From IMG/VR virus record IMGVR_UViG_3300028025_000089: a DNA stretch of 64,000 bases; one strand, given 5' to 3'. The position numbers and the translations under genes were made by a program. This document shows, in pieces, positions 160-26,101 of the stretch. The stretch is from a virus (taxonomy: Duplodnaviria > Caudoviricetes). Under the pieces are notes generated by a model. The model ran no database searches, was not told the origin of the DNA, and saw only the letters and a program-made list of their open reading frames with translations. Each line of letters opens with the position of its first letter. Position 1 is the stretch's first letter.

Positions 160-537
160 ATGAAAAGAACTATAAGATTAACAGAAAGAGATTTAACCAA
201 TATTGTAAAAAGGGTTATTAAAGAAGATGATGTAGATTTTATTAGATTAACAAGAAGAGGGGGTTATCCTATAATCACAAGTTTACATCTTATGAATATT
301 ATATTGGATGAACTTTCTTCAGAACTATCTGACCAATATGGTTTACCTGAATATGACCCATCTTCAAAAGAGCCCATTCCTGATCACTTACTTCCATATT
401 TAGATGAGATTAAAGATTTAGTGAAAGGTGTTGATACACTCCCAATATGGGATGGAGTGCATGATGCGGTATTAGACGATTTGAATGTCCAAGACTTTAT
501 AGGTCGTGTAATATCTGATTATGAAGAAGATAACTAA
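160..537 (+). CDS. Leader-tag family protein (MKRTIRLTERDLTNIVKRVIKE + novel acidic payload)
   Basis: ATG at 160 preferred over track start 103: follows ATATTTAT and begins the shared leader. Confidence 0.85.
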   Translation: MKRTIRLTERDLTNIVKRVIKEDDVDFIRLTRRGGYPIITSLHLMNIILDELSSELSDQYGLPEYDPSSKEPIPDHLLPYLDEIKDLVKGVDTLPIWDGVHDAVLDDLNVQDFIGRVISDYEEDN

Positions 538-546
538 AAAGTTTTT

Positions 547-573
547 AACCCCTCCCTTAAAGAGGGGTTTTTT
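547..573 (+). terminator. Intrinsic terminator
   Basis: AACCCCTC/GAGGGGTT stem plus T-run after stop. Confidence 0.85.
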
Positions 574-610
574 ATTTTATGATATATTTATATGAAAAAA
601 GAATTGTATT

Positions 611-931
611 ATGAAAAAAGTAATTAGATTAACAGAAAGAGATTTAACAAGAATTGTTAGACGAGTAATTAATGAAAGAGACTTCTCACCAAATGTGGTT
701 AAATATGATAAAGGTATGAGAGGTGGGGAAAACCCACTTAGAGATAGAAGAATTCCTGAGAGCAATTTCAACGAAGGGGATATTGTAACAATCAATAGAT
801 ATGGAAAAGAAGGTGAAGTTGTAAATGTTATGTTTGATCATGACAATAATAATTTCATATATCAAGTTAGAGCTGAACTACCTAGTGGGAAAAGTTATAT
901 GGGTGAATTCACAGACGAAGAACTATCTTAA
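611..931 (+). CDS. Leader-tag family protein, possible SH3/KOW-like payload
   Basis: MKKVIRLTERDLTRIVRRVINE; payload GDIVTINRYGKEGEVVNV..YQV resembles a small beta-barrel. Confidence 0.85.
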   Translation: MKKVIRLTERDLTRIVRRVINERDFSPNVVKYDKGMRGGENPLRDRRIPESNFNEGDIVTINRYGKEGEVVNVMFDHDNNNFIYQVRAELPSGKSYMGEFTDEELS

Positions 932-954
932 AAAAAAATAAAGAACTATATATT

Positions 955-983
955 AATCCCCCACCTCATCAGTGGGGTTTTTT
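955..983 (+). terminator. Intrinsic terminator (CCCCACCT..GTGGGG family)
   Basis: CCCCAC/GTGGGG stem plus T-run. Confidence 0.85.
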
Positions 984-1006
984 ATTTTTCATTATATTTA
1001 TCTAAT

Positions 1007-1420
1007 ATGAAAATCATAAGACTTACTGAATCTGATCTAACTAATATCGTTAAACGAGTGATTCGTGAAAATGACTCTATGTTAGAAAAAAACAAGAAGT
1101 TCTTAACCAATCTTATGGGTATTGATTTCACAGGTAAAATCGAACAAATAACCTCAATTTATGATGTTCCAATGGAATTTGATAGATATATTTCAACTGG
1201 AATGATTAATCGTTATTTAAACAAATTTGGACCTATGTATCTTTTTGAACTTGACGGACACAGGTATCTTTATTTGGATGTGGGGGATCATGAGAAGTTT
1301 ATTGATGAAAAAGGAAATGTTTTTATTGAAAATGAAATTCCCGAAAGACTTGGACTCGATGAAATTGGTTTAAGGTTTTCTAATATTATTGATCTGTATT
1401 TCAAAGAAGAGGATTTCTAA
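1007..1420 (+). CDS. Leader-tag family protein
   Basis: MKIIRLTESDLTNIVKRVIRE leader, ATATTTAT upstream. Confidence 0.85.
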   Translation: MKIIRLTESDLTNIVKRVIRENDSMLEKNKKFLTNLMGIDFTGKIEQITSIYDVPMEFDRYISTGMINRYLNKFGPMYLFELDGHRYLYLDVGDHEKFIDEKGNVFIENEIPERLGLDEIGLRFSNIIDLYFKEEDF

Positions 1421-1423
1421 AAC

Positions 1424-1519
1424 ATGACCCCCCATTTCAATTATAGTCAAATACTGAAAAAAAATTTCCAGAAAAATTTTGACGAAGACGATGATGATTA
1501 TTATTACGGTGGTGAATGA
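1424..1519 (+). CDS. Possible 31-aa micro-ORF or gene remnant
   Basis: MTPHFNYSQILKKNFQKNFDEDDDDYYYGGE; starts 3 nt after the previous stop. Confidence 0.3.
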   Translation: MTPHFNYSQILKKNFQKNFDEDDDDYYYGGE

Positions 1520-1559
1520 CCTGGTGGTCGTTGGTAATTAAAAGAAATAGATAAGATCT

Positions 1560-1588
1560 AACCCCATTTCTAAAGAGTGGGGTTTTTT
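1560..1588 (+). terminator. Intrinsic terminator
   Basis: AACCCCA..GTGGGGTT plus T-run. Confidence 0.8.
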
Positions 1589-1753
1589 ATTTTTCTTCCT
1601 TTTTGTGGGGTGCCGGAAACCGAAACCCGACTTCGTCGGAAAAAATCGACCGACCGAACCCTTCGGGTTTTATTTTGTTTTATATAATAACTTATTTAAT
1701 GATCCATTCAGAAAAAGGTGTCTATTGATATATTTATAATAAAATATTTTAAT

Positions 1754-2065
1754 ATGAAAAGAATTGTAAGATTAACTGAGTCAGATTTGGCTCGAATCGT
1801 TAGACGAGTTATTAAAGAAGAAAGTCAATCCGTTGACACTGTTTGTCTTGAACGAGCGGGATATAAGGAAACGATCATTGGGGGTCCTCAAGTAAGACGA
1901 ATTAGATATCAGAAACAAACTGGTAACGTTTTAAGATCAATAGACTCTAAAACTAATATCATGGAAAAATTTGTTGGGGACAAAAAATACGAATGTAATT
2001 GTTCTTGTAGCGATGGAAAGGTTACAGAATCAAATTGTAAAGAAGTAGTGAATTCGATTTATTAG
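1754..2065 (+). CDS. Leader-tag family protein, Cys-rich payload
   Basis: ATG 1754: MKRIVRLTESDLARIVRRVIKE; CxCxC near the C-terminus. Confidence 0.85.
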   Translation: MKRIVRLTESDLARIVRRVIKEESQSVDTVCLERAGYKETIIGGPQVRRIRYQKQTGNVLRSIDSKTNIMEKFVGDKKYECNCSCSDGKVTESNCKEVVNSIY

Positions 2066-2097
2066 ATTTTATATCTCAAAGTGAAAAAATATTATAG

Positions 2098-2121
2098 ACC
2101 CCGGATTAATTTGGGGTTTTT
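2098..2121 (+). terminator. Intrinsic terminator
   Basis: ACCCCGG/TTGGGGT stem plus T-run. Confidence 0.7.
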
Positions 2122-2219
2122 GGTTTATATGATAAATTATTTAATGATCCATTAAGAAAACAAGGTTTTTTTTAATTTTCGATATATTTATTAGTAAATT
2201 AAATAAAAAAAAATAAGTT

Positions 2220-2525
2220 ATGAAAAAAATTATTAGACTTACAGAATCAGATTTAACAAGAATTGTTAGACGAGTTATTAATGAAGCCGCAAGAAACGTA
2301 GGTAAAACATTTACCGCTGATGGTGACACATATCAAGCAACTGTTGGTGCTGGAGATAAGATTTTCTATTGGGGATCAAAATCTCAATCTAAAGCTACGG
2401 GACAGACTGTGGAAAAACTTAATAAAATGTCAGGGTATAACATACCAGCATCTAATGGGGAAATATCAATCGGATATATTCAAAAAAATCCTGGTTTTAA
2501 AACTACATTGAGAGAACTTATTTAA
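2220..2525 (+). CDS. Leader-tag family protein
   Basis: MKKIIRLTESDLTRIVRRVINE-A. Confidence 0.85.
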   Translation: MKKIIRLTESDLTRIVRRVINEAARNVGKTFTADGDTYQATVGAGDKIFYWGSKSQSKATGQTVEKLNKMSGYNIPASNGEISIGYIQKNPGFKTTLRELI

Positions 2526-2578
2526 TATAAAATTAAAATATTAGATTAATTTTTATCCCCTTAAAAAAAATATGATCT

Positions 2579-2603
2579 AACCCCACCTCAAGTGGGGTTT
2601 TTT
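2579..2603 (+). terminator. Intrinsic terminator (CCCCACCT family)
   Basis: AACCCCAC/GTGGGGTT plus T-run. Confidence 0.85.
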
Positions 2604-2625
2604 GTTTTATATAGTATTTATTATT

Positions 2626-3036
2626 ATGGATCATCTAATTAAAAGAATTATTAACGAAACACTTATTGAAAAGTTCTTTGATTCCATGTTTTCTGATTTA
2701 AATTTAGATAATTTGGAATCTATGGTTATTAGAGACAATAGAAGTGTTCATAAAACTAGTGTTGGGTATTATACCCCTGATCTAAAAAAACCTGATCTAA
2801 AAAAAATGGTCTTTAGAGTTGTAGAACCATTTAAAAGTTCCTACTGGGATTCAGATGATCCACAAAGTAGAATTAGACCAATTAATCATCCAAAAAGTTT
2901 ATATATTAGAGAAGATATATATAACACAATTATGGATTATATCCCTAATAAAAAAATGGTAGTTGATTGGTTCAATAAAAGATATGATCAGAATGTTGAA
3001 CAAATACTAAACGGAGGATTTCATTTATTTTTATGA
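2626..3036 (+). CDS. Hypothetical protein with short leader variant (MDHLIKRIINE)
   Basis: ATG 2626 after GTATTTAT. Confidence 0.75.
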   Translation: MDHLIKRIINETLIEKFFDSMFSDLNLDNLESMVIRDNRSVHKTSVGYYTPDLKKPDLKKMVFRVVEPFKSSYWDSDDPQSRIRPINHPKSLYIREDIYNTIMDYIPNKKMVVDWFNKRYDQNVEQILNGGFHLFL

Positions 3037-3365
3037 AAATAATAATTACAGAAGATCAAGTTGAATCTCTTAGAAAGATCAAAGTCTTAGAAAACTATAT
3101 TGATAATATTTTATCTGAATATCCTTGGTATGAAGGAATCGATGGTGTTAAAGTTGAACCATTTATGTTTAGACATCCAGAATCATATAAGGTTCCATTG
3201 TATAGGTTTAATATCAAAACAAACGATCATGAACAATCATTTCATGATGGAGAATCAGATAACTCACCCATAACAAATGATATTGATGAGATGTTTGAGT
3301 CATTATTTCCAAAGAAAGATGGTAAATGGACCGCAGTTTGGGTGTTTAATTTTGTTGATGCATGA
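3033..3365 (+). CDS. Hypothetical protein, MKIIITEDQ leader variant
   Basis: ATGA overlap with the upstream stop. Confidence 0.8.
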   Translation: MKIIITEDQVESLRKIKVLENYIDNILSEYPWYEGIDGVKVEPFMFRHPESYKVPLYRFNIKTNDHEQSFHDGESDNSPITNDIDEMFESLFPKKDGKWTAVWVFNFVDA

Positions 3366-3817
3366 AAATAAATATTGGAAATGAAAAACTAAAAAATATG
3401 TTAAAGAAACTCTTTGAAAACAAGGAGTTTGAAATGACGCTCAAAGATACTGAACATGATGGTTGGGATGGGTATGACTATGTTACGAAAGATGTTATTT
3501 ATGAATTTAAATTTCATGTCGTTGTTAGAAGTGTTATTGGTAAAGGAATAGATGCTGTTGGTGATATGGATATTATTATTGATTCTATAACAAAAAATGG
3601 TGATGACTATTATCATAATTGGGCTGATAATAATTATAGTGATAGGGTATGGTATATTAATGAACTTGATGAAATGTTTTATCTTGATTACTTGGAAGTT
3701 TTACCATTTAGTGTTTTTACAACTGTTTATGGTTATGATGAAAAAAGAAAAGGTGAAAGTGTGATTGATGAATCTTTAATTAAAAGAGTTATTAAAGAAA
3801 TTTTAAAAGAAAAATAA
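3362..3817 (+). CDS. Hypothetical acidic protein with leader-like motif at its C-terminus
   Basis: ATGA coupling; ends IDESLIKRVIKEILKEK. Confidence 0.8.
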   Translation: MKINIGNEKLKNMLKKLFENKEFEMTLKDTEHDGWDGYDYVTKDVIYEFKFHVVVRSVIGKGIDAVGDMDIIIDSITKNGDDYYHNWADNNYSDRVWYINELDEMFYLDYLEVLPFSVFTTVYGYDEKRKGESVIDESLIKRVIKEILKEK

Positions 3818-3818
3818 G

Positions 3819-3830
3819 ATATTTATAAAT
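3819..3830 (+). promoter_or_regulatory. Putative phage late-class promoter ATATTTAT (representative of dozens)
   Basis: (A/G)TATTTAT lies roughly 10-35 nt upstream of leader-tag and head genes; this copy is ATATTTATAAAT. Confidence 0.65.
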
Positions 3831-3840
3831 AAAAAATGTC

Positions 3841-4284
3841 ATGAAAAAATTAATTAGATTAACAGAGACAGATTTGGCTCGAATTGTTAGAAAAGTAATC
3901 ATCGAAGAAATGGAAGATGTAAAAACTAATGATACTTTTGACTTTAGTCAAACTGAAAAAAAATTATTTGATAGGTTCCTTACGGAAAAAAACGGTTTTG
4001 AATATGTGGATACTAAAGGAGATGGTGATGTATACGCTTTAAAAAGAAGAGGGTTTACAATAGTATTAATGGTAAAACCATCAAATGACCCATCTAAATT
4101 ATATATTCAAATTTATGTTAAATTACCAATGGGTAAAATTATTAATTATTTAAATGAAGTTCAGGGTAAATCAGGTATGGAGTTAAAAATGACTGACTAT
4201 AATGGATTGATTAAACAAATACAGGGAGCGATTAATTTTGGTAAGGCTCAATATGATTATGACACTCTTCCACCACTAAAATAA
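3841..4284 (+). CDS. Leader-tag family protein
   Basis: MKKLIRLTETDLARIVRKVIIE. Confidence 0.85.
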   Translation: MKKLIRLTETDLARIVRKVIIEEMEDVKTNDTFDFSQTEKKLFDRFLTEKNGFEYVDTKGDGDVYALKRRGFTIVLMVKPSNDPSKLYIQIYVKLPMGKIINYLNEVQGKSGMELKMTDYNGLIKQIQGAINFGKAQYDYDTLPPLK

Positions 4285-4304
4285 AGAAAAAAAAATAAAA
4301 TTTT

Positions 4305-4342
4305 AAAATCCCCCTACTCTTTTGACTGGTGGATTTTTTTTT
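4305..4342 (+). terminator. Intrinsic terminator (TCTTTTGACTGG-loop family)
   Basis: AAAATCC/GGATTTT plus T-run; loop related to those at 5138 and 6691. Confidence 0.75.
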
Positions 4343-4375
4343 GTATCAATTATATATTTATAAATAAAAAATGTC

Positions 4376-4726
4376 ATGAAAAAAATAGTTAAATTAACAG
4401 AAAGTGATTTATCTCGTATTGTTAAACGAGTTATTAATGAACAACCAATTGATGATTATACCTCACAAAGTATCCACAGTAAGTTGGTTCACTACGGTGA
4501 TACTATGGACCAAGAATATAAAAGAATTAAAAATATTAGAGAAGAACTTGATAACTCAATAAGAATGCATCTTAGAAGGGGTTCAATTTCAGATATTTTT
4601 GATCAAGGAAAAAGGACTCCATCTGATATCTCTGATCTTGTTAGACAGTTAACAAGTAAAATGGGTCAATTGGAAAGCACTGTTAGCCAATATAAAAGAA
4701 TGATTAGAAACGCAATAACTGACTAA
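4376..4726 (+). CDS. Leader-tag family protein, helical payload
   Basis: MKKIVKLTESDLSRIVKRVINE. Confidence 0.85.
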   Translation: MKKIVKLTESDLSRIVKRVINEQPIDDYTSQSIHSKLVHYGDTMDQEYKRIKNIREELDNSIRMHLRRGSISDIFDQGKRTPSDISDLVRQLTSKMGQLESTVSQYKRMIRNAITD

Positions 4727-4748
4727 ATTAATATTGTAGAAAATACAA

Positions 4749-5096
4749 ATGAAAAAAATAGTTAGACTTACAGAATCAGATTTGATTCGAATTGTTAAAC
4801 AAGTTTTGAATGAAGAAAGTGATGTAGCTGTTGGAGGAAAACCAAAAGGTTATGACGAATTTCAAAAAAAATGTATCACAAAAAATAAAGGAAGTTTTAG
4901 AACTTACTCTAGTAATAGAACACTTTTAAAATGCACTAAAACTGAAGGGTCGTTTTTTCATCCCGAAGAAAGAGATAGTTTATGGGTTAATAATAACCCT
5001 TACAATCCTAAAGATACAGGTATAAACGGATCGTGGAAATTTGAAAACGGAAAAATAACTTTACATAACGCCTTAAAAGGTGATAAAACATTATAA
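4749..5096 (+). CDS. Leader-tag family protein
   Basis: MKKIVRLTESDLIRIVKQVLNE. Confidence 0.85.
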   Translation: MKKIVRLTESDLIRIVKQVLNEESDVAVGGKPKGYDEFQKKCITKNKGSFRTYSSNRTLLKCTKTEGSFFHPEERDSLWVNNNPYNPKDTGINGSWKFENGKITLHNALKGDKTL

Positions 5097-5744: not shown

Positions 5745-5749
5745 TAAGA

Positions 5750-7509: not shown

Positions 7510-8940
7510 ATGAAAAACATTATTATTACCGAAAACCAACTCAGATTGTTGATAAATAATTCGTTTGATTTAATCAAAGAAGAAAAAAGACCTTTTGAAA
7601 AATTAAAAGAATGTATAATTAGCGAAGACTATAAATATATTGTATACGATAATAACTTATATGATTCGCAAACGGGTAATCTAATTCCTATATCTGAAGG
7701 TTGGTCTTTGAGTGATATTTTACATACAGGTGCCGATGTTTTATCTGTTGCCGCTGATTTTATAATTCCAGGATCAGGAGCAATTATTGATACATTGAAT
7801 GCGTTGAGTTATATAATCGAAGCTCAATTTAAAACTGGACCTGAACAAGACAAACTTTATTTAATGGCGGCAATTACATTTGCATTTGTTGTTCTTCCTG
7901 GTCCATTACAAGCACTTTCTGCTCCTTTGAAAAGAGCAATTAAAACGGGTGCAGGTTTTGCGTCTAAGGCGGTCGTAAGAGGATTAAAAATTATTGGGGG
8001 AATTTTAGAATCAATCCTTGTAAAACTACCAGCAACGATTAGTAAAGCATTAAAATCCCCATTAGCCAAAAAAATATTAGGTAGGTTTTCAGGGAAAATT
8101 TCCAAGTTCTTTCAAAAATTTGCAATTAGAATTAGAAAAATTTTGGCACCATTAACTAAAGCCGGTGAAAAGGTGGTTAAAAAGGGCAGTCAAGAGGCTG
8201 GTGAAAAGGTGGTTAAAAAAGGTGCTGAAAAAGTAGTTGTAACAAATATTGTTCATCAAGCGGCCAAAAGGTTTTTCCAAAAAATACCAAAAATGTCTCA
8301 AGGAGGTAAAATTTTGAGAAAGGCTGGATTTGCACCAGGATTCGCTTATAGATACACTTCTAAGAAAGGTGCCACAACAACGGCAAAAATTATGAATATT
8401 AATGACAATGGTGTTTTAGTTATGTTTAAAAACGGTAATCAAATGACGGTTCCTGTAGAAACATTTGTACAAAGAGCTGTTGGTGCACCATGGTTAAGAA
8501 GAGGTGCGTCAACTTTAGTTCCATTATTTATAAAAAGATTTTTTGATATGGTAACACCTGATGGATCGGGTATTGACTACAAAAAATTAGATCAACTCAA
8601 AGATTTAGATCCGGCTAAAACTTCTAAAGAATCTTTAGATTATCTAATGGAGGAAGTTGCTGATTACGAAGGAGATACAGGAACTTATAATGTGTCAACA
8701 AACGTAACTGACTTCCAAAATGCTCTTGAGTTGTTGGGTTATAAATTAGTTAGAGCTGGTGCAGACGGTAAATTTGGTCCTGAAACAAAGGAACAATTAA
8801 CAAAATTCCAAAACGATAATAAACTTACATCTTCAATAGGAAAAATGGATAGAGTAACTGCAAGAAAATTGGCGGAACTTTTAAAAACTAAAAATATTCC
8901 TAATTCCTTAGATTTACAAAATAAATTAAACAAAGTATAA
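7510..8940 (+). CDS. Leader-variant protein with hydrophobic central helices and C-terminal peptidoglycan-binding domain (PG_binding_1-like)
   Basis: MKNIIITENQL; C-term VTDFQNALELLGY..ADGKFGPETKEQLTKFQ..GKMDRVT. Confidence 0.8.
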   Translation: MKNIIITENQLRLLINNSFDLIKEEKRPFEKLKECIISEDYKYIVYDNNLYDSQTGNLIPISEGWSLSDILHTGADVLSVAADFIIPGSGAIIDTLNALSYIIEAQFKTGPEQDKLYLMAAITFAFVVLPGPLQALSAPLKRAIKTGAGFASKAVVRGLKIIGGILESILVKLPATISKALKSPLAKKILGRFSGKISKFFQKFAIRIRKILAPLTKAGEKVVKKGSQEAGEKVVKKGAEKVVVTNIVHQAAKRFFQKIPKMSQGGKILRKAGFAPGFAYRYTSKKGATTTAKIMNINDNGVLVMFKNGNQMTVPVETFVQRAVGAPWLRRGASTLVPLFIKRFFDMVTPDGSGIDYKKLDQLKDLDPAKTSKESLDYLMEEVADYEGDTGTYNVSTNVTDFQNALELLGYKLVRAGADGKFGPETKEQLTKFQNDNKLTSSIGKMDRVTARKLAELLKTKNIPNSLDLQNKLNKV

Positions 8941-8942: not shown

Positions 8943-9296
8943 ATGAAAGATTCAGAAATAAAAAAAATAGTAAGAAGAGTAATTTCAGAAGAAGTTAACG
9001 AAGGATCCACATGGGAAGGTGTTAAAGGATTTTTTAGAGGTAAAGGATATTATTATACAAAATATCTTACAGAACTAGAATATATCTTAGAAGAAATGGA
9101 AAAAGAAATTGTTAGTAATGCAAAGATAGAAAAAAAATTACAAAAATTAAAAGATAAGGTTGAGTCTTCGTCAATAGAAAAAGAAAAAAAAGACAACATA
9201 AAAATTATGTTTAACAGAACTCAACAAGTTATTCAATACGCCGATAGATTAATACAAAATGAATTATACAACTTAAAAAGACTTAAAGATTATTAA
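8943..9296 (+). CDS. Leader-variant coiled-coil protein
   Basis: MKDSEIKKIVRRVISEE. Confidence 0.8.
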   Translation: MKDSEIKKIVRRVISEEVNEGSTWEGVKGFFRGKGYYYTKYLTELEYILEEMEKEIVSNAKIEKKLQKLKDKVESSSIEKEKKDNIKIMFNRTQQVIQYADRLIQNELYNLKRLKDY

Positions 9297-12162: not shown

Positions 12163-12912
12163 ATGAATCACAAGGTAATTTTAACTGAAAAACAATTAGA
12201 TAGAATTGTTAGAAACTTGATGGAGGAACCAATTATTCCACTATCTCGACAAACAGATATAAATGCACAAAATGTTAATACAGCATCTTGGGAAAGAAAA
12301 AAAGGTAGAGAAATCGCAACAACACTTTCTGCCAAAGGTAAGGAAAACTTTAAATTGGGTGAGGCTGAAATAAACAAGGATGCGGCCCAAATTAAAAAAA
12401 TTGTTTCCGATTTGAAAGATTTTAATAATAGAGGTGGAGGAACCGCAACTGTTAATGGTAGTGCATCAAACACAGCTTGGGGTAGTTTTCCTGCTAGCTC
12501 TTCACAAGCGAGAGAAAAAAATACACAACTTGCAGAAAAAAGAAGAGATAATTTAATCAATTATTTAAAAACATTAGGATTAAATAAAATAACATTCGTT
12601 AAAGGAAGGGCCAGTGTGTCAGACTCTGATAAAGCAGAAAATCAAAATATCACAATAGATATTTTAGGTCAAGGAACTATGTTTGTAGACCCGAAAGGAG
12701 ATATTGGTGATAACACAAGAACTTCACCTAAACTTTACGATAAAAAATTTCCTGAAAGAAAAAAAATAATTCCAACCCCATATAGAACATCTGAATCAAG
12801 AGTTTGCACAAAGTTACCAACTGAACTTGTTAGTGAACTTAAAAAAGTAATCTATAATTGGGGTAAAACCAAAGGTTTAAAATTACCTATGAGTGATAAA
12901 ATCATAAAATAA
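12163..12912 (+). CDS. Leader-tag protein with OmpA_C-like peptidoglycan-binding motif
   Basis: VILTEKQLDRIVRNLMEE; NTQLAEKRRDNLINYLKTLG resembles N..LS..RA..V..YL...G. Confidence 0.7.
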   Translation: MNHKVILTEKQLDRIVRNLMEEPIIPLSRQTDINAQNVNTASWERKKGREIATTLSAKGKENFKLGEAEINKDAAQIKKIVSDLKDFNNRGGGTATVNGSASNTAWGSFPASSSQAREKNTQLAEKRRDNLINYLKTLGLNKITFVKGRASVSDSDKAENQNITIDILGQGTMFVDPKGDIGDNTRTSPKLYDKKFPERKKIIPTPYRTSESRVCTKLPTELVSELKKVIYNWGKTKGLKLPMSDKIIK

Positions 12913-12959: not shown

Positions 12960-13604
12960 ATGGGAAGAAAAATTAGACTTACAGAATCAGAGTTTCATTC
13001 ATTAATTCGAAGAATTGTTATGGAAACTCAAGAAGAAATGAATATTCAAATGGACGAAGAAATGGACATGGAAATGGGTGAAGAAGACGTTGTTGATAAA
13101 ATCCAAGATGTTGTTGAGGATGAATTAGGTGACGAGTTCAGACAATTATCTTCTGATGAACTTATGACTATGATGAGAAACTTAGAAAAAGTTGAAAACA
13201 TGATTAGATCAAAAGAAAGAAGATCAGGTGAAGAAATTTTATTTGATGATTTTGTTGATGAAGTTGGAAGTGTTTCTAAAGATGAGATGGGTGAAGGTAT
13301 TGATGCAAGAAAATCTAAAATGAGAAAAAGAGGTAAAATGATTGGTGGGGCAGGATTACTTGCGGCGGGATTATTAACTTTAATGTCTCAAGGAACAACA
13401 TATACTGATTGGGGTCCTGCATTCATTGATCTTCACGACGCTATACAAGCGGCTTTTGGTGAATACGCACCAAATGTTGGTTTGTTAGAAGTTGTTACAG
13501 GACTTGGATTGGCTTTAAATGGTATCGCTCAACAACAGGGAGAAGATGAAGAAAAAGAAATTCAAAAAGAGAATTATTTAAGAAGAAAATACAGAAGATA
13601 TTAA
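12960..13604 (+). CDS. Leader-tag protein with acidic region and hydrophobic helices
   Basis: MGRKIRLTESEFHSLIRRIVME. Confidence 0.85.
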   Translation: MGRKIRLTESEFHSLIRRIVMETQEEMNIQMDEEMDMEMGEEDVVDKIQDVVEDELGDEFRQLSSDELMTMMRNLEKVENMIRSKERRSGEEILFDDFVDEVGSVSKDEMGEGIDARKSKMRKRGKMIGGAGLLAAGLLTLMSQGTTYTDWGPAFIDLHDAIQAAFGEYAPNVGLLEVVTGLGLALNGIAQQQGEDEEKEIQKENYLRRKYRRY

Positions 13605-14791: not shown

Positions 14792-17245
14792 ATGAAACAA
14801 TTACTAATTTTATTTTTATTCCCCCTTTTTATCTATTCTCAGTATTGTCCTTTTATCGGACCTGACTTAAATCTTCCTTGTGGTGTTACACAAACTACTT
14901 TAACTGCGGATCTTTCACAGTGCGGTCAAGGATCAAACCCAAACTCAACAACAAATTATACCGTATCACAAATTACTTACGCACCACAAACAAATCTTGG
15001 AACTTTAGTTACATTAGGTGATGATTCTCAATCGGGAATATTTAATATTGGATTTACCTTTTGTTTTTATGGTCAAACTTATACTCAATTTAGAATTGGG
15101 TCAAATGGTTGGGTTTCTTTAGGTAACGGGGCTCAACCCTTTACATTTGCATCAGTTTCTATCCCAACCGTAAATGCCGCGGTTCCTAAAAATTGTATTA
15201 TGGGTCCTTGGCAAGACTGGAATCCTGGTATTGGAGGTCAAGTTAGATACCAAGTTCAAGGGGTTGCCCCATGTAGAAAGTTAGTAGTTAGTTGGATTGG
15301 TGTTCCTATGTATTCATGCACCAATTTACAAGGAACTTTTCATATTGTATTATATGAATCAACAAATATTATAGAAAACTATATTGCAAATAAACCAAAT
15401 TGTCCTCAATGGGCGGGTGGAACATCAGTTCAAGGCGTTCATAATCCTACAGGAACTCAAGCAGTAACAGTTGCAGGTCGAAACTCTACTCAATGGACTG
15501 CGGTGAATGATGCAAGACGATATACACCTTCAGGACCCGTAGTTCAACCTGTGTTAACTTGGTATCAAGTTGGAAATCCTGTGTCTATTGGAACAGGTCA
15601 AAGTATAACCGTAACCCCTCCTCTTAATGGTGCATACTACACTTGTCATTTAGAGTATGGACCTTGTAACGCAGGTTGGTCGACCTGTAATCAACAAGGT
15701 GTTGGTTTAGGTCCTGATACAATACATGTTGTTCCCACACCTAACTTACCGATTCCTACAATAACACCAACAGATCCACTTTGTAATAATGGTTGTAATG
15801 GATCTATTGTGGTTACTCCTATTGGTGGAACTCAACCATTCAATATCAGTTGGAATAATGGTGGAAACACTTTAACGTTAAACAATTTATGTTCAGGAAC
15901 TTATACTTTCACTTTAACAGATGCCACAGGTTGTAGTTATAATGGAACTTCTACATTAAACAACCCGGCACCTTTACAACAACCAACAATTACCCCTACA
16001 AATCCTGTTTGTTATGGATATTGTGACGGATCAGCAACGGTAAATCCAATTGATGGTCTCGCACCTTACACTTTTATGTGGAATAATAACCAAACAACAC
16101 AAACGGCAACTAATTTATGTTCAGGAAATTATTCTGTCACGGTTTATGACGCAAATAACTGTCCTGCAACACAAAATGTTACACTTGTTGATCCCCCACA
16201 AGTAACAATCAACCCAATTACAGGTTTAGACACCGTTTGTTATAACTCCACAACCAATTTATACAACGTTTCCAGTGTTTTTCCTGGTCTAAACTATGTA
16301 TGGACTAACGGAATTGGAAATATCACGTCAGGTCAAGGGACAAATCAAATAAATTTGGATGTTACAGGTGTAAATGGTGGTTTATATAACAATGCATTAT
16401 CAGTTATTGGTGTAAATCAAGTGGGATGTCAGTCATCACCACAAACTTTTAACATTGTTGTGTTAAATATTCTTCCTGTAATCACACAAGTTGGTCCTTT
16501 TTGTGAATATGACAACTGTATTAACCTAAATGCCACTCCCGCAGGTGGAATACTCAGCGGAATGAACGTTTGGGGTAATCAATATTGTCCTGATAACGGA
16601 TTTATCGGGTTAGATCAGGTAGATTATACATATACTCAGTCAGGTTGTTGGTTTGACACAAGTATTTTTGTTCAAGTTTATCCAAGACCTAACATTTTAC
16701 CTGTAACAAACGGTGTTGTTGATGAAAATATGGAGTATCATCAAATATGTGAAGGAGATACTGTGTCAGATGTGTTTAGTTTAACGTCAGTTAGTGGTGG
16801 ATATAACGAATGGTATGTGTTTGGAGACACAATTACTAACAATACTTTGAGTGTGACATGGGATATGGACGGAATATTCACTTTTCAGGGTGTAAGATGG
16901 GACAATGGATGCGTTTCTAACCCCCAATCCTTCACAATAACCTTAGAATTGTGTCCAAATGAGATATTTTACATACCAAACGCCTTTACACCTGATGGTG
17001 ATGAGAAAAATAACACATTTAAACCCATAATTACAAGTGGTGTGGACATTTTTAACTATAGTTTTTACATATACAACCGTTGGGGACAAGTAATTTGGGA
17101 ATCTTACAACCCAAATATAGGTTGGGATGGGACATTTAACACAATTATGTGTCAAGATGGGGTATATACTTGGAAATTGAAGTTTAAATCTCCTAAAACT
17201 GATGAAATTAAAGAATTTATGGGAAGTTTAACACTTATTAGATAA
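14792..17245 (+). CDS. T9SS type-B CTD (gliding-motility-associated C-terminal domain) adhesin-like protein with SprB-like repeats
   Basis: Signal peptide; Cys-NNGCNGSIVV..GGT.PF..SW repeats; C-term IPNAFTPDGDEKNNTFKP..YNRWGQVIWES..WDGT..DGVY. Confidence 0.9.
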   Translation: MKQLLILFLFPLFIYSQYCPFIGPDLNLPCGVTQTTLTADLSQCGQGSNPNSTTNYTVSQITYAPQTNLGTLVTLGDDSQSGIFNIGFTFCFYGQTYTQFRIGSNGWVSLGNGAQPFTFASVSIPTVNAAVPKNCIMGPWQDWNPGIGGQVRYQVQGVAPCRKLVVSWIGVPMYSCTNLQGTFHIVLYESTNIIENYIANKPNCPQWAGGTSVQGVHNPTGTQAVTVAGRNSTQWTAVNDARRYTPSGPVVQPVLTWYQVGNPVSIGTGQSITVTPPLNGAYYTCHLEYGPCNAGWSTCNQQGVGLGPDTIHVVPTPNLPIPTITPTDPLCNNGCNGSIVVTPIGGTQPFNISWNNGGNTLTLNNLCSGTYTFTLTDATGCSYNGTSTLNNPAPLQQPTITPTNPVCYGYCDGSATVNPIDGLAPYTFMWNNNQTTQTATNLCSGNYSVTVYDANNCPATQNVTLVDPPQVTINPITGLDTVCYNSTTNLYNVSSVFPGLNYVWTNGIGNITSGQGTNQINLDVTGVNGGLYNNALSVIGVNQVGCQSSPQTFNIVVLNILPVITQVGPFCEYDNCINLNATPAGGILSGMNVWGNQYCPDNGFIGLDQVDYTYTQSGCWFDTSIFVQVYPRPNILPVTNGVVDENMEYHQICEGDTVSDVFSLTSVSGGYNEWYVFGDTITNNTLSVTWDMDGIFTFQGVRWDNGCVSNPQSFTITLELCPNEIFYIPNAFTPDGDEKNNTFKPIITSGVDIFNYSFYIYNRWGQVIWESYNPNIGWDGTFNTIMCQDGVYTWKLKFKSPKTDEIKEFMGSLTLIR

Positions 17246-18722: not shown

Positions 18723-19253
18723 TTAAAGACCTTTAACTAAGTTTATTGATTGTTTTAGATATTCTTTCGCTCTTGGAGATGGGGTATATTCATCATCTTT
18801 AGTTTGTAAGTTCAATACCTTCTCAATATCCTTAACAAGTTCCGTTCCGTGTTCATTTTCTTTATATAACTCAATTATCTTATCCATAGCCTTATGACAA
18901 TCACCTGTAGTCTCATCATAGAAATTTTTATTTCTAAATCTGTTTAAATGATTCATCATTTCATAAGCCAAGTGAGATCCACCATCTTTGATGTCTTTAA
19001 ACAATCTAAGATTATTCAAAATACCTAATGTATCAACCATTGAATTAACACCTGAAATTCTTTTAGTAATTCCTGGTGTATATTTTGAATACTCTGAAGA
19101 TCCTCCAACAATTTCATCCAACGGAATTACGTTTTCAGGAATACATTTTGGTTTTTTGTCTTTCTTTTTTGAACTTGAAGACATTTCTTGTTCGCTAAGG
19201 ACAGATCTAACAATTTTGTTAATATCTCTTTCTGTTAATTTTTTTATTTTCAT
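18723..19253 (-). CDS. Leader-tag family protein
   Basis: MKIKKLTERDINKIVRSVLSE. Confidence 0.85.
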   Translation of the reverse strand: MKIKKLTERDINKIVRSVLSEQEMSSSSKKKDKKPKCIPENVIPLDEIVGGSSEYSKYTPGITKRISGVNSMVDTLGILNNLRLFKDIKDGGSHLAYEMMNHLNRFRNKNFYDETTGDCHKAMDKIIELYKENEHGTELVKDIEKVLNLQTKDDEYTPSPRAKEYLKQSINLVKGL

Positions 19254-19307: not shown

Positions 19308-19922
19308 ATGAGAATTTTAGAAAATGTAATTAAAAGGGTTTTGAATGAGTATTCTAACCACCCAATGATGTTGGAAGAAGGTGTTTTAGTTTCTGATAAT
19401 TTGATGTATCATATTGAAAAAAAAATACCTTTAAATGAAAGTGTGTTTAGAATATATTCGGAATCTTATTTTGATTTAATTAATGAGGTTCGAGAGTTAT
19501 ATAATATGGGTTTAATAAATTTGAACGAAGAAGATGAATGGATCGTTAATTCAAATTTGGGTGAATCTGTTATTTTAGAAAATGGTCAAAAAGTTTATTT
19601 AGATGCTCCGTTAGAAGAAACTGAATACTTAAATGAAGCAAAACATCATGGTAAAAATGTTAAATTAAATAGTCCTTTTAGAACACCAGGTGGTCCTAAG
19701 AAATTTGCGGTTTATGTTAAAACTCCAAAAGGGACAATTAAAAAAGTTACTTTCGGAGATCCTAATTTGAGAATCAAAAACGCTAATAAAGGTAGAGCAA
19801 AATCTTTCAGGGCACGTCATAAATGTGACCAGAAGAAAGATAGAACTACGGCAGGGTATTGGTCTTGTAATGTTGGTAGATATGCAAAAAAATTAGGTTT
19901 AAAATCATCAAGAAGTTGGTAA
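19308..19922 (+). CDS. Leader-variant protein with basic C-terminal domain typical of T4-like phages
   Basis: MRILENVIKRVLNE; KKFAVYVK..KKVTFGDPN..SFRARHKC..AGYWSC. Confidence 0.8.
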   Translation: MRILENVIKRVLNEYSNHPMMLEEGVLVSDNLMYHIEKKIPLNESVFRIYSESYFDLINEVRELYNMGLINLNEEDEWIVNSNLGESVILENGQKVYLDAPLEETEYLNEAKHHGKNVKLNSPFRTPGGPKKFAVYVKTPKGTIKKVTFGDPNLRIKNANKGRAKSFRARHKCDQKKDRTTAGYWSCNVGRYAKKLGLKSSRSW

Positions 19923-21765: not shown

Positions 21766-21823
21766 ATACTTAAATTACTTTTTATTTAAACTAATAATAC
21801 AACATAAAGAAATATTTATCAAT

Positions 21824-22447
21824 ATGACCGAGATTAAAAAACTTTTATTAATAGAAAAAGCTGAAGAGACTAAACTTATAAGACAAATTGTAAGAGATAT
21901 AATCACCGTTTTTAAATCTAATGATGAGGGTGAATTTTATTTACCTGAAGATTTACCAAACAACGATGAAGAACATATGGAATATTTTTCACCTAAAACT
22001 TCGGTTTCGGTTGAACTTACAATAGAAGAACTTTCTGATTTAGATAATTTTTTGGTAAACGCATATTTTGCAAGAAACGAAAATGTTATTGAAGTTAAAA
22101 TAGTTTATAACCCAAGAAATAAAACAACTATGTTATATGATTTGGTTGGTGAGTTAAATGAGGTGATTGCTCATGAAATGAGACATCTATATCAGAAAGA
22201 AACCGGTATGTTTTATTTTAGTGATGAAGAAGATGAAGAAGAATTACCACCATTTGAATATTATTCTGACCCAAAAGAAGTTGACGCACAAGTTGCCGGA
22301 TTTAGAAGAATGAAAAATATAACCAAAAGACCATTTGAAACATTAGTTAGAAATTGGTTTTCAACACACACAGAAATTCACAATTTAAATAAAGAAGAAC
22401 AAGAGGAGATTATTCAAATGATTTTAGATCGTAATTCTAAGATCTAA
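21824..22447 (+). CDS. HExxH (zincin-like) protein
   Basis: IAHEMRHLYQ and Y..P.EVDAQ..G; ATG 21824 after ATATTTAT. Confidence 0.65.
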   Translation: MTEIKKLLLIEKAEETKLIRQIVRDIITVFKSNDEGEFYLPEDLPNNDEEHMEYFSPKTSVSVELTIEELSDLDNFLVNAYFARNENVIEVKIVYNPRNKTTMLYDLVGELNEVIAHEMRHLYQKETGMFYFSDEEDEEELPPFEYYSDPKEVDAQVAGFRRMKNITKRPFETLVRNWFSTHTEIHNLNKEEQEEIIQMILDRNSKI

Positions 22448-23057
22448 ATCTTTTAATCATTTTTTCTAAAAGTTCAGATATTATCTTTGACGATATTATA
22501 CCACCTGTATAGTGAGTTATTCCCATAACAACTAGTTCCATTTGTTCGGTAGATAAATCCATATCAGCCAAATTTTTAACTAATGGAACTAAAGGAACTA
22601 AAAAAGTGTATGCCAACATATTAGAGACTTTAGAGAAGGTCATGTTCAGACTTTCTAAAAACCCAAAGAACGCATCTCTTAGATCGTAACTTTTTAATAA
22701 AGCTCTATCAAAAAAAGTGACAAGTTTTTTTTCTTTTATTAATCCTAAAACTTTTTTTAATTTTTCTTTATTGTCAGAAAAGAAAGTTAAGATTATACCA
22801 AAACAAATTAAAGATATTTCATCTTCAGTTAAGTTAGTATAAGTTCCTTCCATATATCTATAAACAGGACCAACAAAACCACCAATAACCGAACCCCAAG
22901 TTAGAGCAAAAGTAAAATCAATTCCGTGTTGTTTTTTTACGTCCTTTACAATTTTTTTTGCGATGTCTTTTGAATTGGAAAATGTTTGAGATATTTCTTC
23001 CTCTTTTTCCTCTTTTAAAAGATTAATATATTGAGATTCAGATAAGACTAATTTCAT
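22437..23057 (-). CDS. Membrane protein with MKLVLSESQY..LLKE leader variant
   Basis: ORF track; hydrophobic segments. Confidence 0.8.
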   Translation of the reverse strand: MKLVLSESQYINLLKEEKEEEISQTFSNSKDIAKKIVKDVKKQHGIDFTFALTWGSVIGGFVGPVYRYMEGTYTNLTEDEISLICFGIILTFFSDNKEKLKKVLGLIKEKKLVTFFDRALLKSYDLRDAFFGFLESLNMTFSKVSNMLAYTFLVPLVPLVKNLADMDLSTEQMELVVMGITHYTGGIISSKIISELLEKMIKRFRS

Positions 23058-23162
23058 TGTAATAGTTTGGTATTTTCTAAAATAAATATCATTATAAATT
23101 ACTTTAATACGATTTTTTAAAATATTTGACCTAACTGAAATATTTATTAAAAAAAAGAAACT

Positions 23163-23801
23163 ATGAATGCATACTTTTTCAAAATGACAAAAGAAGAAAA
23201 ATCTAATATTTTAGATCAACATAAATCTCTTTATGATGGTTATGTGACAAAATATAATCAAGAAAGTAACCAATATCCATTATATGTTCAGGATTATGCG
23301 AACGATAAAAATGGTGTAACGGTTTCTAACAAAGGAAATGTAAAACAATATACAAATATTAATATAAATGAATCTCCATTAGATAGAATTGGTGATGGTC
23401 CATATGATTTGAAAAACGGAACAGTAGATATTGATTCCTATATGGACACTGAAGACAGAAATACACAATTTATGCACGATGTATATCCTTCACCAAATGA
23501 AGAAGAGTTTGATTATGAATCTTTCGGAAATTATGCGGACGACATGAAACAAAATGAGGACCAATATGAATACGATATCGACCAATTGGAAGATTACTCC
23601 TCAGAAGAGATTAACGAAACTTTTGACGATGATTTTGAAGATTCAGAGCAAGATGATCCATTTATTGAAATGGAGGAAGATTTCGAAAAAGTTGACAATG
23701 AAGAAATAATTTCAAATGTTGACGAAGATGTTCTTCCTGAATTCTATTCGCAACTTCAAGAATCTTTAGACATGTTCAAAAGGTTTAAAAAGTATAATTA
23801 A
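23163..23801 (+). CDS. Acidic hypothetical protein
   Basis: ORF track; ATATTTAT upstream. Confidence 0.8.
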   Translation: MNAYFFKMTKEEKSNILDQHKSLYDGYVTKYNQESNQYPLYVQDYANDKNGVTVSNKGNVKQYTNININESPLDRIGDGPYDLKNGTVDIDSYMDTEDRNTQFMHDVYPSPNEEEFDYESFGNYADDMKQNEDQYEYDIDQLEDYSSEEINETFDDDFEDSEQDDPFIEMEEDFEKVDNEEIISNVDEDVLPEFYSQLQESLDMFKRFKKYN

Positions 23802-23802
23802 A

Positions 23803-24105
23803 ATGGAAGTTCAAGAAATAATTTTTTATTTCCTACACGAAGACACCAATATTTTAGAAGTTCAATTTAGATTGACAATAGATTCAGAAGAAGAAGTAAG
23901 GATTGATAACATAGACTTACTTGAAGTTGATGATTTCGGATATGATTTAGTTTTAGAAAGTTTTGAGTTTGATGATGATGAAGATGACGATGAAAACTTT
24001 TTTTGGAATGAGTCTGCAAGTATCGATGAAGATAACTTGATGGAATTTTTAAATGAGTATTACATTGTTAAACCAGAAAAACTACCAAAGCCCGAGTTGA
24101 TTTAA
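23803..24105 (+). CDS. Acidic hypothetical protein
   Basis: ORF track, coupled to the upstream gene. Confidence 0.75.
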   Translation: MEVQEIIFYFLHEDTNILEVQFRLTIDSEEEVRIDNIDLLEVDDFGYDLVLESFEFDDDEDDDENFFWNESASIDEDNLMEFLNEYYIVKPEKLPKPELI

Positions 24106-24605
24106 GGACCAACTCGGGTTAAAAACATTGTTGTAGTTTCACCACTACTATTATTTCCATAATCGTAACTTCCTGAAGTTCGAATAACCAAACTCTCCAT
24201 TCCATCATCAATTATTTTCCAAACTCTTTTTGTTCCATCGTAGTTGAATACAATATATCCTAAATCATAAACATTATTGTGTCCTTGAACCATGTATGTG
24301 TATTGTTTTGTCCATGTTGTTGATCCTGTTGATGGGTCATCGATTGGATCAAAATAAATAACCGCATAATCTAATGCAAGTCTTGTAAAACCAACCGCAA
24401 TTGTGTCTAAAGGTTTGGTTTCACTTTCATTAACATAAAGATCACCAGGGTAAAAAACCTGATTTAAATTTGAGTTGTCTTTATTTTCATATGTGATTTT
24501 ATCAATTCGATATTCACCACTTAAACTTAACGAAACTGGCTCTCCGTATTTAACACAAGAGGAAAGTATTAGAACTGAAAGGATAAAATAAAATAGGTTT
24601 TTCAT
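24102..24605 (-). CDS. Lipoprotein
   Basis: Lipobox LSSC; host-type promoter. Confidence 0.8.
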   Translation of the reverse strand: MKNLFYFILSVLILSSCVKYGEPVSLSLSGEYRIDKITYENKDNSNLNQVFYPGDLYVNESETKPLDTIAVGFTRLALDYAVIYFDPIDDPSTGSTTWTKQYTYMVQGHNNVYDLGYIVFNYDGTKRVWKIIDDGMESLVIRTSGSYDYGNNSSGETTTMFLTRVGP

Positions 24606-24668
24606 AATCTTTATTGTTTTAACAAATATATATCTTTTTTTTCAGTCTATAAAGGTATTTATAAAAAA

Positions 24669-24908
24669 ATGGACTTAGACGAAATAATTTATTTATTAAA
24701 AAGATATACCATAAATAGTGGTGAAGAAAAAGAATTAGGTGAACAGGATGCCGCTGCTGCCGGTGGTGGAGGTGGTGGAACTACATATCCTACGGTCACA
24801 AAATGGGAGACAGGATTAACAAGAAGTGTTGCAAACCAAATTGATTATAAGGCCAAATGGAAAGATCTTTACAAAATAACAAGAGGTAAAGCAAATACAC
24901 TTTTATAA
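24669..24908 (+). CDS. Small Gly/Ala-rich hypothetical protein
   Basis: ORF track; GTATTTAT upstream. Confidence 0.7.
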   Translation: MDLDEIIYLLKRYTINSGEEKELGEQDAAAAGGGGGGTTYPTVTKWETGLTRSVANQIDYKAKWKDLYKITRGKANTLL

Positions 24909-24961
24909 TTTTACTTGTTACGGTATATTTATATTATATAAAAAAAGAAAAAAAAACTATT

Positions 24962-26101
24962 ATGGATATCGATAGAATGATAAGAAAACTTCTTAAAGAA
25001 GCTGATGAAACCAAAACATTAGGTTTAAATTATAATGACCAGTATGATATTTTACAAAAAGGTATAAATTCATGTCCTACTTTTTCTAATTTAGTAAAGG
25101 GTAGAACTATTAAAGTTTTCCCAAGTTCTGAAATATCAAAAATACCTGAATTAGCGGGTTTAACCGAAGTTGCTTATATCTCGACACCTTTAAGAGAAGA
25201 TGGTTTGGGGTTAATATTTTTTGGTGTGAAAGATAAAGAAACTGAGATGGGAAAAAAACAATTTTTAACATACGCATTTAAAGCTGGATTTAAACCAACA
25301 AAATGGAAACAAGGATGGGGATCTGATTGTGATGCAATTCAAGAATTATCACAACTAGGTAAAGATACTTTAACACCAGAACAAAAAAGAATATTAGATG
25401 ATTATATCAAAACTAATGCAGACACAACTGCGGAATACGAACCAACGGGTAATATGGGTGAGTGGACAAAAAAACCTTACAGCGACATTATACCAGGATA
25501 TAAAGGAACAGGATATGTTTGGGTTCAAACTTCTTTACAAAATGTAAATGCGAATGTGTTAGAAGACGTAGATATGGCATTATCTGGACAAGGATTTACA
25601 AGAATTGAGACGGATTTACCTTACGATTCTCCAGAAAGAAATTATCCTATATTATTGAAGGATCTAGTCATTTACTACCCGTCTTTACAAGCCGCAGCAA
25701 CAAAGTCACCAAATACTAAAGTTTATCTACAAAAAGGAACTTTTCCAACACCTGATAAAGAAAGTTGTAGATCGGTTATAAAACTTTTAACCACATGTTC
25801 AAAAACAAAAGGTGGTGCCGGTGCGGAATGTTATAAAAACTTACTTAAAAATAAGTATTTGGCGTTACAGTGTCAAAATTTGAAATTTGTAGGAGGTGCG
25901 TTAGGACTAAGAGACGAATTCGACGACTTATTAACCGATGGGACTGGAAATTTTGGTTTAGGATCAATAAAAGCGGCGCTTGATAGAGGTATTACAACAA
26001 AATCATCAGAACCACAAAAAAACTATTCAATTAAAGAATCGATTGACAAAAGAGTTTCAAAAGCCTTGAACGAAGAGTTTAAAAGAATTTTTAAATATTA
26101 A
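24962..26101 (+). CDS. Leader-variant protein (MDIDRMIRKLLKE-A)
   Basis: 379 aa ORF. Confidence 0.8.
   Translation: MDIDRMIRKLLKEADETKTLGLNYNDQYDILQKGINSCPTFSNLVKGRTIKVFPSSEISKIPELAGLTEVAYISTPLREDGLGLIFFGVKDKETEMGKKQFLTYAFKAGFKPTKWKQGWGSDCDAIQELSQLGKDTLTPEQKRILDDYIKTNADTTAEYEPTGNMGEWTKKPYSDIIPGYKGTGYVWVQTSLQNVNANVLEDVDMALSGQGFTRIETDLPYDSPERNYPILLKDLVIYYPSLQAAATKSPNTKVYLQKGTFPTPDKESCRSVIKLLTTCSKTKGGAGAECYKNLLKNKYLALQCQNLKFVGGALGLRDEFDDLLTDGTGNFGLGSIKAALDRGITTKSSEPQKNYSIKESIDKRVSKALNEEFKRIFKY

Follow-up and report, generated by a model that had tools for sequence, protein, structure and literature searches.

A conserved N-terminal leader on unrelated proteins of an uncultured T4-like phage: a candidate cleavable capsid-targeting propeptide

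The window analysed here, a 64,000-nucleotide stretch of viral DNA (Duplodnaviria; Caudoviricetes; IMG/VR record IMGVR_UViG_3300028025_000089), begins with 20 kb of small genes, among which 12 open reading frames (ORFs) open at their first ATG with a common 22-residue peptide (consensus MKKIIRLTESDLTRIVRRVINE) joined to otherwise unrelated proteins. We propose that this leader may be a cleavable propeptide resembling the capsid-targeting sequence (CTS) of bacteriophage T4, and acting as its functional counterpart in a distant T4-like lineage. On the sequence evidence presented below, we consider this interpretation to be evenly balanced between right and wrong.

Leader peptide and carrier proteins

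A hidden Markov model (HMM) of the leader, scanned over the 1,677 six-frame stop-to-stop segments of the window, retrieved exactly 12 ORFs (E 1.4e-16 to 2.2e-10), always with the motif at the ORF start, and no 13th segment under E 1e-3. These are indeed the 12 ORFs listed in an earlier note on this DNA, 11 of them on the plus strand and one, 19253-18723, on the minus strand (ORF 19253(-); Table 1). Residues M1, L7 and E22 are invariant in the 12 full leaders, and T8, E9, I15 and V16 are at least 90% conserved. The leader is N-terminal, basic and amphipathic, with hydrophobic residues at a heptad-like spacing, and is followed by a polar flexible linker. When shorter forms were scored with a deeper HMM against the 141 ORF N-termini of the window, four of the five proposed earlier (ORFs 8943, 61427, 19308 and 2626) were retained at E ≤ 3e-3, and ORF 24962 was marginal only. 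ORF 7510 reached only E 0.09, and is nevertheless, from its sequence, a family member with a drifted leader, because its body is 58-60% identical to a 593-aa protein of the relative L084 that starts with a canonical leader. The number of leader proteins in the window is accordingly put at a probable 16-18, so that the earlier figure of about 20 was slightly too high and the mention of dozens of loaded proteins was overstated; related records have counts of 7-15 each.

It is the peptide sequence of the leader that is conserved. Its conserved positions (Leu, Arg, Ser and Val) are encoded by several synonymous codons (for example TTA/CTT/CTA, AGA/CGT/CGA and TCA/AGT) in approximately genomic proportions, which argues that the peptide, and not the DNA, is under selection, and the repeated unit of promoter, start codon and leader is only 65-80% identical as DNA. 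A profile search of the PDB with the leader gave only chance matches to the C-terminal helix of eL34, and a full-text literature search for the core hexapeptides of the leader returned nothing relevant.

Related patterns were noted at other sites. The L083 orthologue of ORF 1007 carries a hybrid start, MKIIITEDQ...VKRVISE, so that the leader family may exceed the HMM count. ORFs 3033, 9699, 22437(-) and 34425 start with related, statistically unsupported patterns (MK-IIITE-Q, MKVIISENQL, MKLVLSESQ and ...NRKLLITEEEK). The small acidic protein encoded at 54635-55081 (+), right after the portal gene, at the position of T4 gp67/gp68, starts with MSKLEKLPQKNLKFILKRMNE↓S (here and below, the arrow stands after the Glu of a presumed cut motif), a leader-like end below HMM significance that is kept in the four closest of the five orthologues found. 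At the other extremity of a protein, the C-terminus of ORF 3362-3817 (+), just 5' of the next leader cassette, reads ...ESLIKRVIKEILKEK and contains a partial leader-like motif (ESLIKRVIKE); this could be a relic left by the fusion of two cassettes or by a deletion between them, on a par with the internal copies found in database proteins (see below).

Downstream of the terminal Glu, no pair of window payloads matched by BLASTP, and the 68 leader proteins of the window and six relatives fell into 51 payload clusters, in agreement with the earlier statement that no similarity is visible after this residue. Payloads are small (mostly 80-250 aa), and their isoelectric points (pI) range from 4.1 to 9.9, with five of 12 at pI 4.1-4.8; they are thus not uniformly basic like the internal proteins of T4. 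Pfam and PHROGs searches with ten window leader proteins gave nothing above the cut-off, and a protein-atlas look-up of the ORF 19253(-) payload returned only its own viral cluster. In most payloads no domain could be recognised, the exceptions being PG_binding_1 (ORF 7510 and its orthologue) and LysM (two database members); enzyme payloads, one QueF-like and one GNAT, also occur. The peptidoglycan-binding and membrane-like payloads have no signal peptide, which would fit with their reaching the envelope from the virion, a suggestive point only. As a separate observation, the proteins encoded at 19308-19922, 61427-62371 and 63633-63983(-), two of which have short leaders, end in a basic, Cys-containing region with the patterns K-x-F/Y-R-A-R-H-K-C...Y-W-S-C and Y-P-S-A-Y-A-N...C, and may share a C-terminal module.

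Divergence of the leader relative to its payload

The ORF 19253(-) family made it possible to compare the leader with its payload. In 30 orthologues, identity was 47% in the leader and 43% in the Lys-rich linker, versus 85% in the payload body, while E21 was invariant and hydrophobic positions stayed hydrophobic. Judged by this alignment, the leader of the family evolves twice as fast as its payload. The AlphaFold2 model of the same protein has a helix at residues 8-22 and a disordered segment at 23-38; as its mean predicted local distance difference test score (60) was too poor for a fold search, the model was used for secondary structure only. Rapid divergence with a retained Glu and hydrophobic pattern, together with a helix followed by disorder, is more reminiscent of a signal or propeptide than of part of a folded domain, and suggests a detachable targeting peptide.

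Putative cut-site motif and proposed link with the prohead protease

The leader ends in I-x-E, with I, L or V at P3: among database members, P3 is Ile in 165 of 192, P2 is Asn, Lys or Ser, and P1 is Glu in 189 of 192. At the level of the motif, this end is both that recognised by gp21, the T4 prohead protease, and that found in the major capsid protein (MCP) of the clade. The window MCP indeed reads F56-L-I-N-E60↓A61, as previously noted, with the same ending as the VINE↓A of ORF 2220, and L-I-N-E-A is invariant in 80 relatives. In an alignment with the T4 gp23 chains of the PDB, the T4 propeptide extends as far as window residue 54 and mature gp23* starts to match at residue 65, so that the MCP cut must fall in the ten-residue gap 55-64, which contains a single I-x-E. 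In ORF 61427, the length of the leader varies among 48 relatives, and the junction (I/L)-x-E↓(A/G)-T-(S/G)-D-S-S-G-S-R-G-S-Y, which resembles the MCP site, is kept. The MCPs of the rumen phages described below read L-I-Y-E↓A-T or L-L-K-E↓A-T.

Residues 7-9 of the leader, L-T-E, make up another motif of this kind, and V-K-E is also present in the rumen leader; by analogy with T4 core proteins, the tag may be chopped into small peptides. Depletion of [LI]-x-E in payloads was also looked for, and none was found: relative to shuffled sequences, the motif was over-represented both in payloads (z 4.7) and in the control ORFs (z 8.8), which makes this comparison uninformative. In a profile-profile comparison of leader and scaffold, the top stretch was scaffold 38-51 (IRQLVKESLKEQ), which was not significant (P 0.41).

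Phage identity, gene cassettes and expression

The window encodes a T4-type head module, with a T4-type terminase, a portal (Portal_T4, E 1e-78), a Peptidase_S77 protease, an acidic scaffold and a gp23-family MCP. A gene for ribosomal protein bS21 (55817-56005 (-); Pfam Ribosomal_S21, E 5e-9), preceded by its own ATATTTAT, lies between portal and protease. The "bS21 phages" are uncultured phages of freshwater Bacteroidetes, whose hallmarks are a reverse-strand bS21 gene inside the TerL-portal-protease-MCP block, AT-rich genomes of ~300 kb and many tRNAs (Chen et al., 2022, PMC9723584). By its gene content, the window belongs to this group, with a genome of ~300 kb, since bS21 occupies the opposite-strand position in the head module, the DNA is AT-rich (~30% G+C), 23 tRNAs are present and relatives measure 229-321 kb. 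DNA of the phage was detected in lake metagenomes from 14 studies. The MCP (59239-61140 (+)) has 633 residues, versus 521 in T4, and its residues ~110-320, between the N-arm and the conserved core, do not align to T4 gp23, which points to the presence here of a large insertion specific to the lineage.

A typical leader gene forms its own cassette, made of a G+C-rich hairpin with a T-run, ATATTTAT 12-37 nt 5' of the ATG, and the leader. This promoter-like motif occurs 43 times in the window, versus 13.3 ± 3.5 expected. For 10 of the 12 leader genes, the motif or its 7-mer core TATTTAT was found no more than 60 nt upstream; it was also found upstream of the terminase, portal, protease (7-mer) and scaffold genes and of ORFs 54635, 55104 and 61427. 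Another set of window genes has the Bacteroidetes host-type TAnnTTTG instead. Two promoter-like classes seem to divide the genes of the window, ATATTTAT for leader, head and tRNA units, and TAnnTTTG mostly before minus-strand genes that seem to encode lipoproteins or signal-peptide proteins, and one for a peptidase.

Regarding expression, a lake RNA library contained a 238-nt contig ~96% identical to the ORF 4376 gene, which attests to presence only. Contigs of relatives in RNA libraries cover three leader genes; they likewise show presence and cannot rank or time expression. None of the RNA sequencing runs contained the window phage itself.

Distribution in relatives and public data

The scan of related genomes that the earlier note had called for was positive: the leader was present in all six related records searched. 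The four larger records have 8-13 copies, a fragment of 60 kb has 15 and a half-complete one has 2; the leader is always N-terminal in them, and mostly with different payloads. A profile search of 1.84 billion cluster representatives (clusters at 50% identity) returned 8,416 proteins at E ≤ 1e-3. Three database members were checked for gene context; their contigs, of only 1-3 kb, were uninformative.

A sister leader with a four-residue insertion (MNKKLIRLTESDLHRIVKESVNRILNE, 26 residues) was found at the start of small, mutually unrelated proteins in at least 50 IMG/VR stretches, from contigs measuring 5-413 kb, whose samples, judging from the sample series, would be of rumen or gut origin. 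Ten large contigs were chosen by the sister leader only, and a gp23-type MCP was present in eight and an S77 protease in seven; the misses were two fragments (45% and 75% complete) and one 95%-complete record with a partial gp23 match. In three rumen phages, leader genes directly adjoin the protease gene within the MCP-scaffold-protease block, and in a fourth, complete rumen genome, three leader genes lie within 2 kb of the protease. In some rumen relatives (L157 5810-7633 (G007) and G013), the S77 domain was found in an ORF of 607-609 aa, ~2.5 times the usual length, with a leader gene directly downstream.

Table 1. Leader-protein genes, head genes and related features of the window, with the main evidence for each.
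Feature	Coordinates	Strand	Evidence
Leader protein, 125 aa, acidic payload	160..537	+	HMM E 1.7e-13, residues 1-25; ATATTTAT 24 nt upstream
Leader protein, 106 aa	611..931	+	HMM E 8.5e-16; terminator hairpin then ATATTTAT upstream
Leader protein, 137 aa, leader one residue shorter	1007..1420	+	HMM E 2.1e-13; L083 orthologue with variant leader
Leader protein, 103 aa	1754..2065	+	HMM E 3.5e-16
Leader protein, 101 aa, consensus leader ending VINE↓A	2220..2525	+	HMM E 1.4e-16
Leader protein, 147 aa	3841..4284	+	HMM E 6.5e-13
Leader protein, 116 aa	4376..4726	+	HMM E 4.6e-16
Leader protein, 115 aa, without own promoter motif	4749..5096	+	HMM E 2.4e-14
Leader protein, 132 aa	9304..9702	+	HMM E 2.3e-12
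Leader protein, 249 aa, weak OmpA-like peptidoglycan-binding payload	12163..12912	+	HMM E 9.2e-13; Pfam OmpA E 0.006, below cut-off
Leader protein, 214 aa: leader, poly-acidic tract, Gly-rich hydrophobic segments	12960..13604	+	HMM E 5.2e-13
Leader protein, 176 aa, clade-conserved	18723..19253	-	HMM E 2.2e-10; 1,406 homologues
Short-form leader protein (MKDSEIKKIVRRVISE)	8943..9296	+	E 1.4e-4, 141 N-termini
Short-form leader protein (MDHLIKRIINE)	2626..3036	+	E 3e-3
Short-form leader protein (MRILENVIKRVLNE)	19308..19922	+	E 2e-3
Possible short-form leader protein, marginal	24962..26101	+	E 0.05
Divergent-leader protein, 476 aa: hydrophobic segments and C-terminal PG_binding_1	7510..8940	+	Pfam PG_binding_1 E 2e-9
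Head-module protein just 3' of MCP, short leader ending VIKE↓ATGDSSGS	61427..62371	+	E 1e-3
Prohead protease, T4 gp21 type, presumed processing enzyme	56577..57305	+	Pfam Peptidase_S77 E 8e-23
Scaffold (core) protein, very acidic middle, conserved ends, presumed docking partner	57655..59202	+	Position between protease and MCP; conservation map
MCP, gp23 type	59239..61140	+	Pfam Gp23 E 6.5e-74; PDB T4 gp23 matches
Predicted MCP maturation site F-L-I-N-E↓A, residues 56-61	59404..59421	+	L-I-N-E-A invariant in 80 relatives
ATATTTAT promoter-like motif, one of 43	2184..2191	+	Precedes leader genes and head genes

Further observations were made elsewhere in the window. The 817-aa product of the phage gene at 14792-17245 (+) combines SprB repeats with a PKD-like domain and a CHU_C type IX secretion signal, and has the appearance of a secreted adhesin of the host type. 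Inside the array of 23 tRNAs, ARAGORN reported at 32358-32433 (+) a tRNA of uncalled identity with a four-base anticodon (ggaa), which may be frameshift-suppressor-like or a mis-call. A tRNA-Asn with the unusual anticodon ATT was found at 27946-28019.

Proposed role of the leader and alternative explanations

The interpretation of the leader as a CTS-like propeptide, already put forward in the earlier note, draws its support from the T4-type head module, the identity of the I-x-E ending with the MCP motif, the conserved junction of ORF 61427, the unequal divergence of leader and payload, and the sister leader beside the protease gene. From a mechanistic point of view, leader genes would be expressed late, together with head proteins, and the leader helix would dock each protein into the scaffold core of the assembling prohead. 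The gp21-type S77 protease would then cut after the invariant Glu, and maybe also after L-T-E at residues 7-9, which would free the payload inside the capsid. More speculatively, freed payloads might accompany the outgoing DNA and function in the next host, ORFs 7510, 12163 and 12960, with their peptidoglycan-binding or membrane segments, being candidates for cargo acting on the envelope. Such injection of cargo is, at this stage, a matter of speculation, as is the idea that the fast turnover of leader genes could come from any ORF becoming cargo upon gaining a promoter-plus-leader module.

Several findings weigh against a CTS-like role. The T4 CTS (MKTYQEFIAE-like) shares no sequence similarity with the leader, which would hence be an analogue and not a demonstrable homologue. 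Among the best 150 database matches, a ranking that favours two-motif proteins, 53 motif copies were internal or C-terminal, mostly without a preceding Met, so that the motif behaves as a portable helix and not strictly as an N-terminal signal; the proteins concerned could represent polyproteins that the protease splits, relics of fused cassettes, or the sign of a general docking module. Both points weaken the earlier interpretation. The P1' position is variable, and is Pro in ORF 12163. Complex prediction with the leader (residues 1-40) and scaffold 1-60 and 380-515 scored 0.00, which counts neither for nor against the proposed role. Although leader genes share their promoter-like motif with head genes, as had been noticed earlier, ATATTTAT also lies upstream of both tRNA clusters; the motif is therefore not head-specific, and late timing can only be presumed. 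The QueF-like and GNAT payloads have no obvious need for packaging, and a ClpB-like AAA+ gene accompanies the leader in 5/5 complete leader-bearing genomes tested, from both lineages. As regards distribution, the clade is uncultured; a tblastn search of 50,697 cultured or deposited phages with the leader and with ORF 1754 had no match at E 10, and hence no carrier characterised by proteomics came to light. The leader was likewise absent from T4-like phages with 41-43% MCP identity, namely Flavobacterium phage immuto, Microcystis phage Mel-JY01 and the uncultured 484-kb LR756508.

Part of these findings would be accommodated if the leader helix served docking or oligomerisation in general and had nothing to do with the capsid, its terminal Glu being only a helix cap. 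The hub could be the ClpB-like AAA+ chaperone, a conserved Bacteroidetes host protein, DNA or the membrane, or the helix could self-associate. Internal and C-terminal copies are what portable interaction helices would show, the helix is basic and amphipathic with a heptad-like hydrophobic spacing, and enzymes would be acceptable payloads for such a module. The ClpB-like gene, however, is also present in the leaderless LR756508, so that its co-occurrence does not discriminate. Docking alone leaves unexplained why the motif ends exactly as the cut motif of the clade MCP, why the short form of ORF 61427 keeps its junction, and why rumen leader genes adjoin the protease gene; moreover, a structural interaction domain would not, as a rule, diverge at twice the rate of its payload. 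We therefore regard this explanation as unlikely, though serious enough to be kept in mind.

The evidence for a CTS-like role would apply equally if targeting to the prohead core were real and the proteins were accessories of assembly in the manner of T4 gp67/gp68 (additional components of scaffold or core, size determinants, or fillers that condense DNA), degraded or kept in the head and not delivered to the next cell as effectors. The strongly acidic, scaffold-like payloads mentioned above and the non-significant leader-like stretch at the N-terminus of the scaffold go in this direction. By contrast, payloads are hypervariable between close relatives, which is not expected of essential assembly parts, and the peptidoglycan-binding and membrane-like payloads suggest an action outside the capsid, so that a purely accessory function appears rather improbable. 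Finally, it is hardly credible that the conservation is a by-product at the nucleic acid level with no role for the peptide, through a promoter and 5' coding module spread by recombination or translation initiation on bS21-modified ribosomes, for even though promoter, start and leader do form one repeated DNA unit and the phage encodes its own bS21, a protein proposed to favour late phage mRNAs (PMC9723584), this is contradicted by the synonymous codon usage, by a peptide pattern kept across lineages whose DNA has diverged, and by internal copies that keep this pattern far from any start codon.

Within the reading of the leader as a CTS-like propeptide, a broader proposal can be formulated as a single joint claim. 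The leader would serve as a universal address label for the capsid in two large, uncultured lineages of T4-like phages, the freshwater Bacteroidetes phages and the rumen huge phages, in which capture of the promoter-plus-leader module turns proteins into virion cargo. Public data would contain over 8,000 different cargo families, among them polyproteins with two payloads that the head protease cuts apart at internal leaders, and together they would form a fast-evolving arsenal for takeover, envelope breaching and anti-defence, co-delivered with the DNA and far larger than the internal-protein set of T4. Taken as a whole, this claim is tentative, and we consider it doubtful, with an appreciable chance of being correct.

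Should the leader indeed be a capsid-targeting propeptide, sequence alone would flag thousands of proteins inside the heads of abundant lake and rumen phages, a head cargo which is normally invisible without virion proteomics and which, in T4, includes anti-restriction proteins. This would offer a 22-residue handle for loading foreign proteins into non-E. coli phage capsids, for mining injected anti-defence proteins and for studying how T4-type cores recognise their cargo. The uncultured bS21 phages would, in addition, gain a testable biological feature.

Comparison with known systems

In T4, cleavage by gp21 takes place after L/I-x-E, and N-terminal CTS propeptides of 10 residues send unrelated proteins into the core (PMC9026906). 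The CTS is present on IPI, IPII and IPIII and in the propeptides of Alt, gp24, gp67 and gp68, and is removed by gp21 (Mullaney and Black, 1996; PMC9026906); the first 10 residues of IPIII suffice for encapsidation, and Alt has propeptides at both ends (PMC9026906). The system described here resembles that of T4 in having an N-terminal peptide common to unrelated, fast-evolving small proteins, with a hydrophobic-x-Glu end and hypervariable payloads as in the T4 internal proteins, and in combining it with a gp21-type protease, a scaffold core, a gp23-type shell and the same motif at the MCP maturation site. It differs in the leader itself, which has 22 residues (26 in rumen) instead of 10, is basic where the T4 CTS is acidic, and contains two or three hydrophobic-x-Glu motifs. 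It also differs in the number of carriers, 16-18 in 64 kb versus approximately four to eight in T4, in the existence of internal and C-terminal copies, and in being known from sequence alone.

The giant phages phiKZ, 201phi2-1 and SPN3US have head or ejection proteins with propeptides, cut after S/A-x-E by the prohead protease (PMC5694885 and PMC7411985, as related in PMC9026906). As is proposed for the present phage, a large number of different proteins are loaded into their heads and processed C-terminal to Glu, with few further determinants. By contrast, as described there, their propeptides are long and share no single conserved tag, and both the protease family (S80) and the head lineage differ.

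Encapsulin cargo-loading peptides offer a further parallel, as one short conserved peptide brings unrelated cargo inside an HK97-fold shell, in line with what is proposed for the leader. Unlike the leader, these peptides are usually C-terminal, remain uncleaved and bind the shell protein directly, in a cellular compartment and not in a virion.

That CTS-like tags on variable proteins are a route by which T4-like phages load diverse proteins is thus already proposed in the T4 literature (PMC9026906). What the present analysis adds is the tag itself, with its length, basic helix and tandem cut motifs, the scale of 8,416 clusters, its occurrence in two ecologically separate lineages, and its internal copies.

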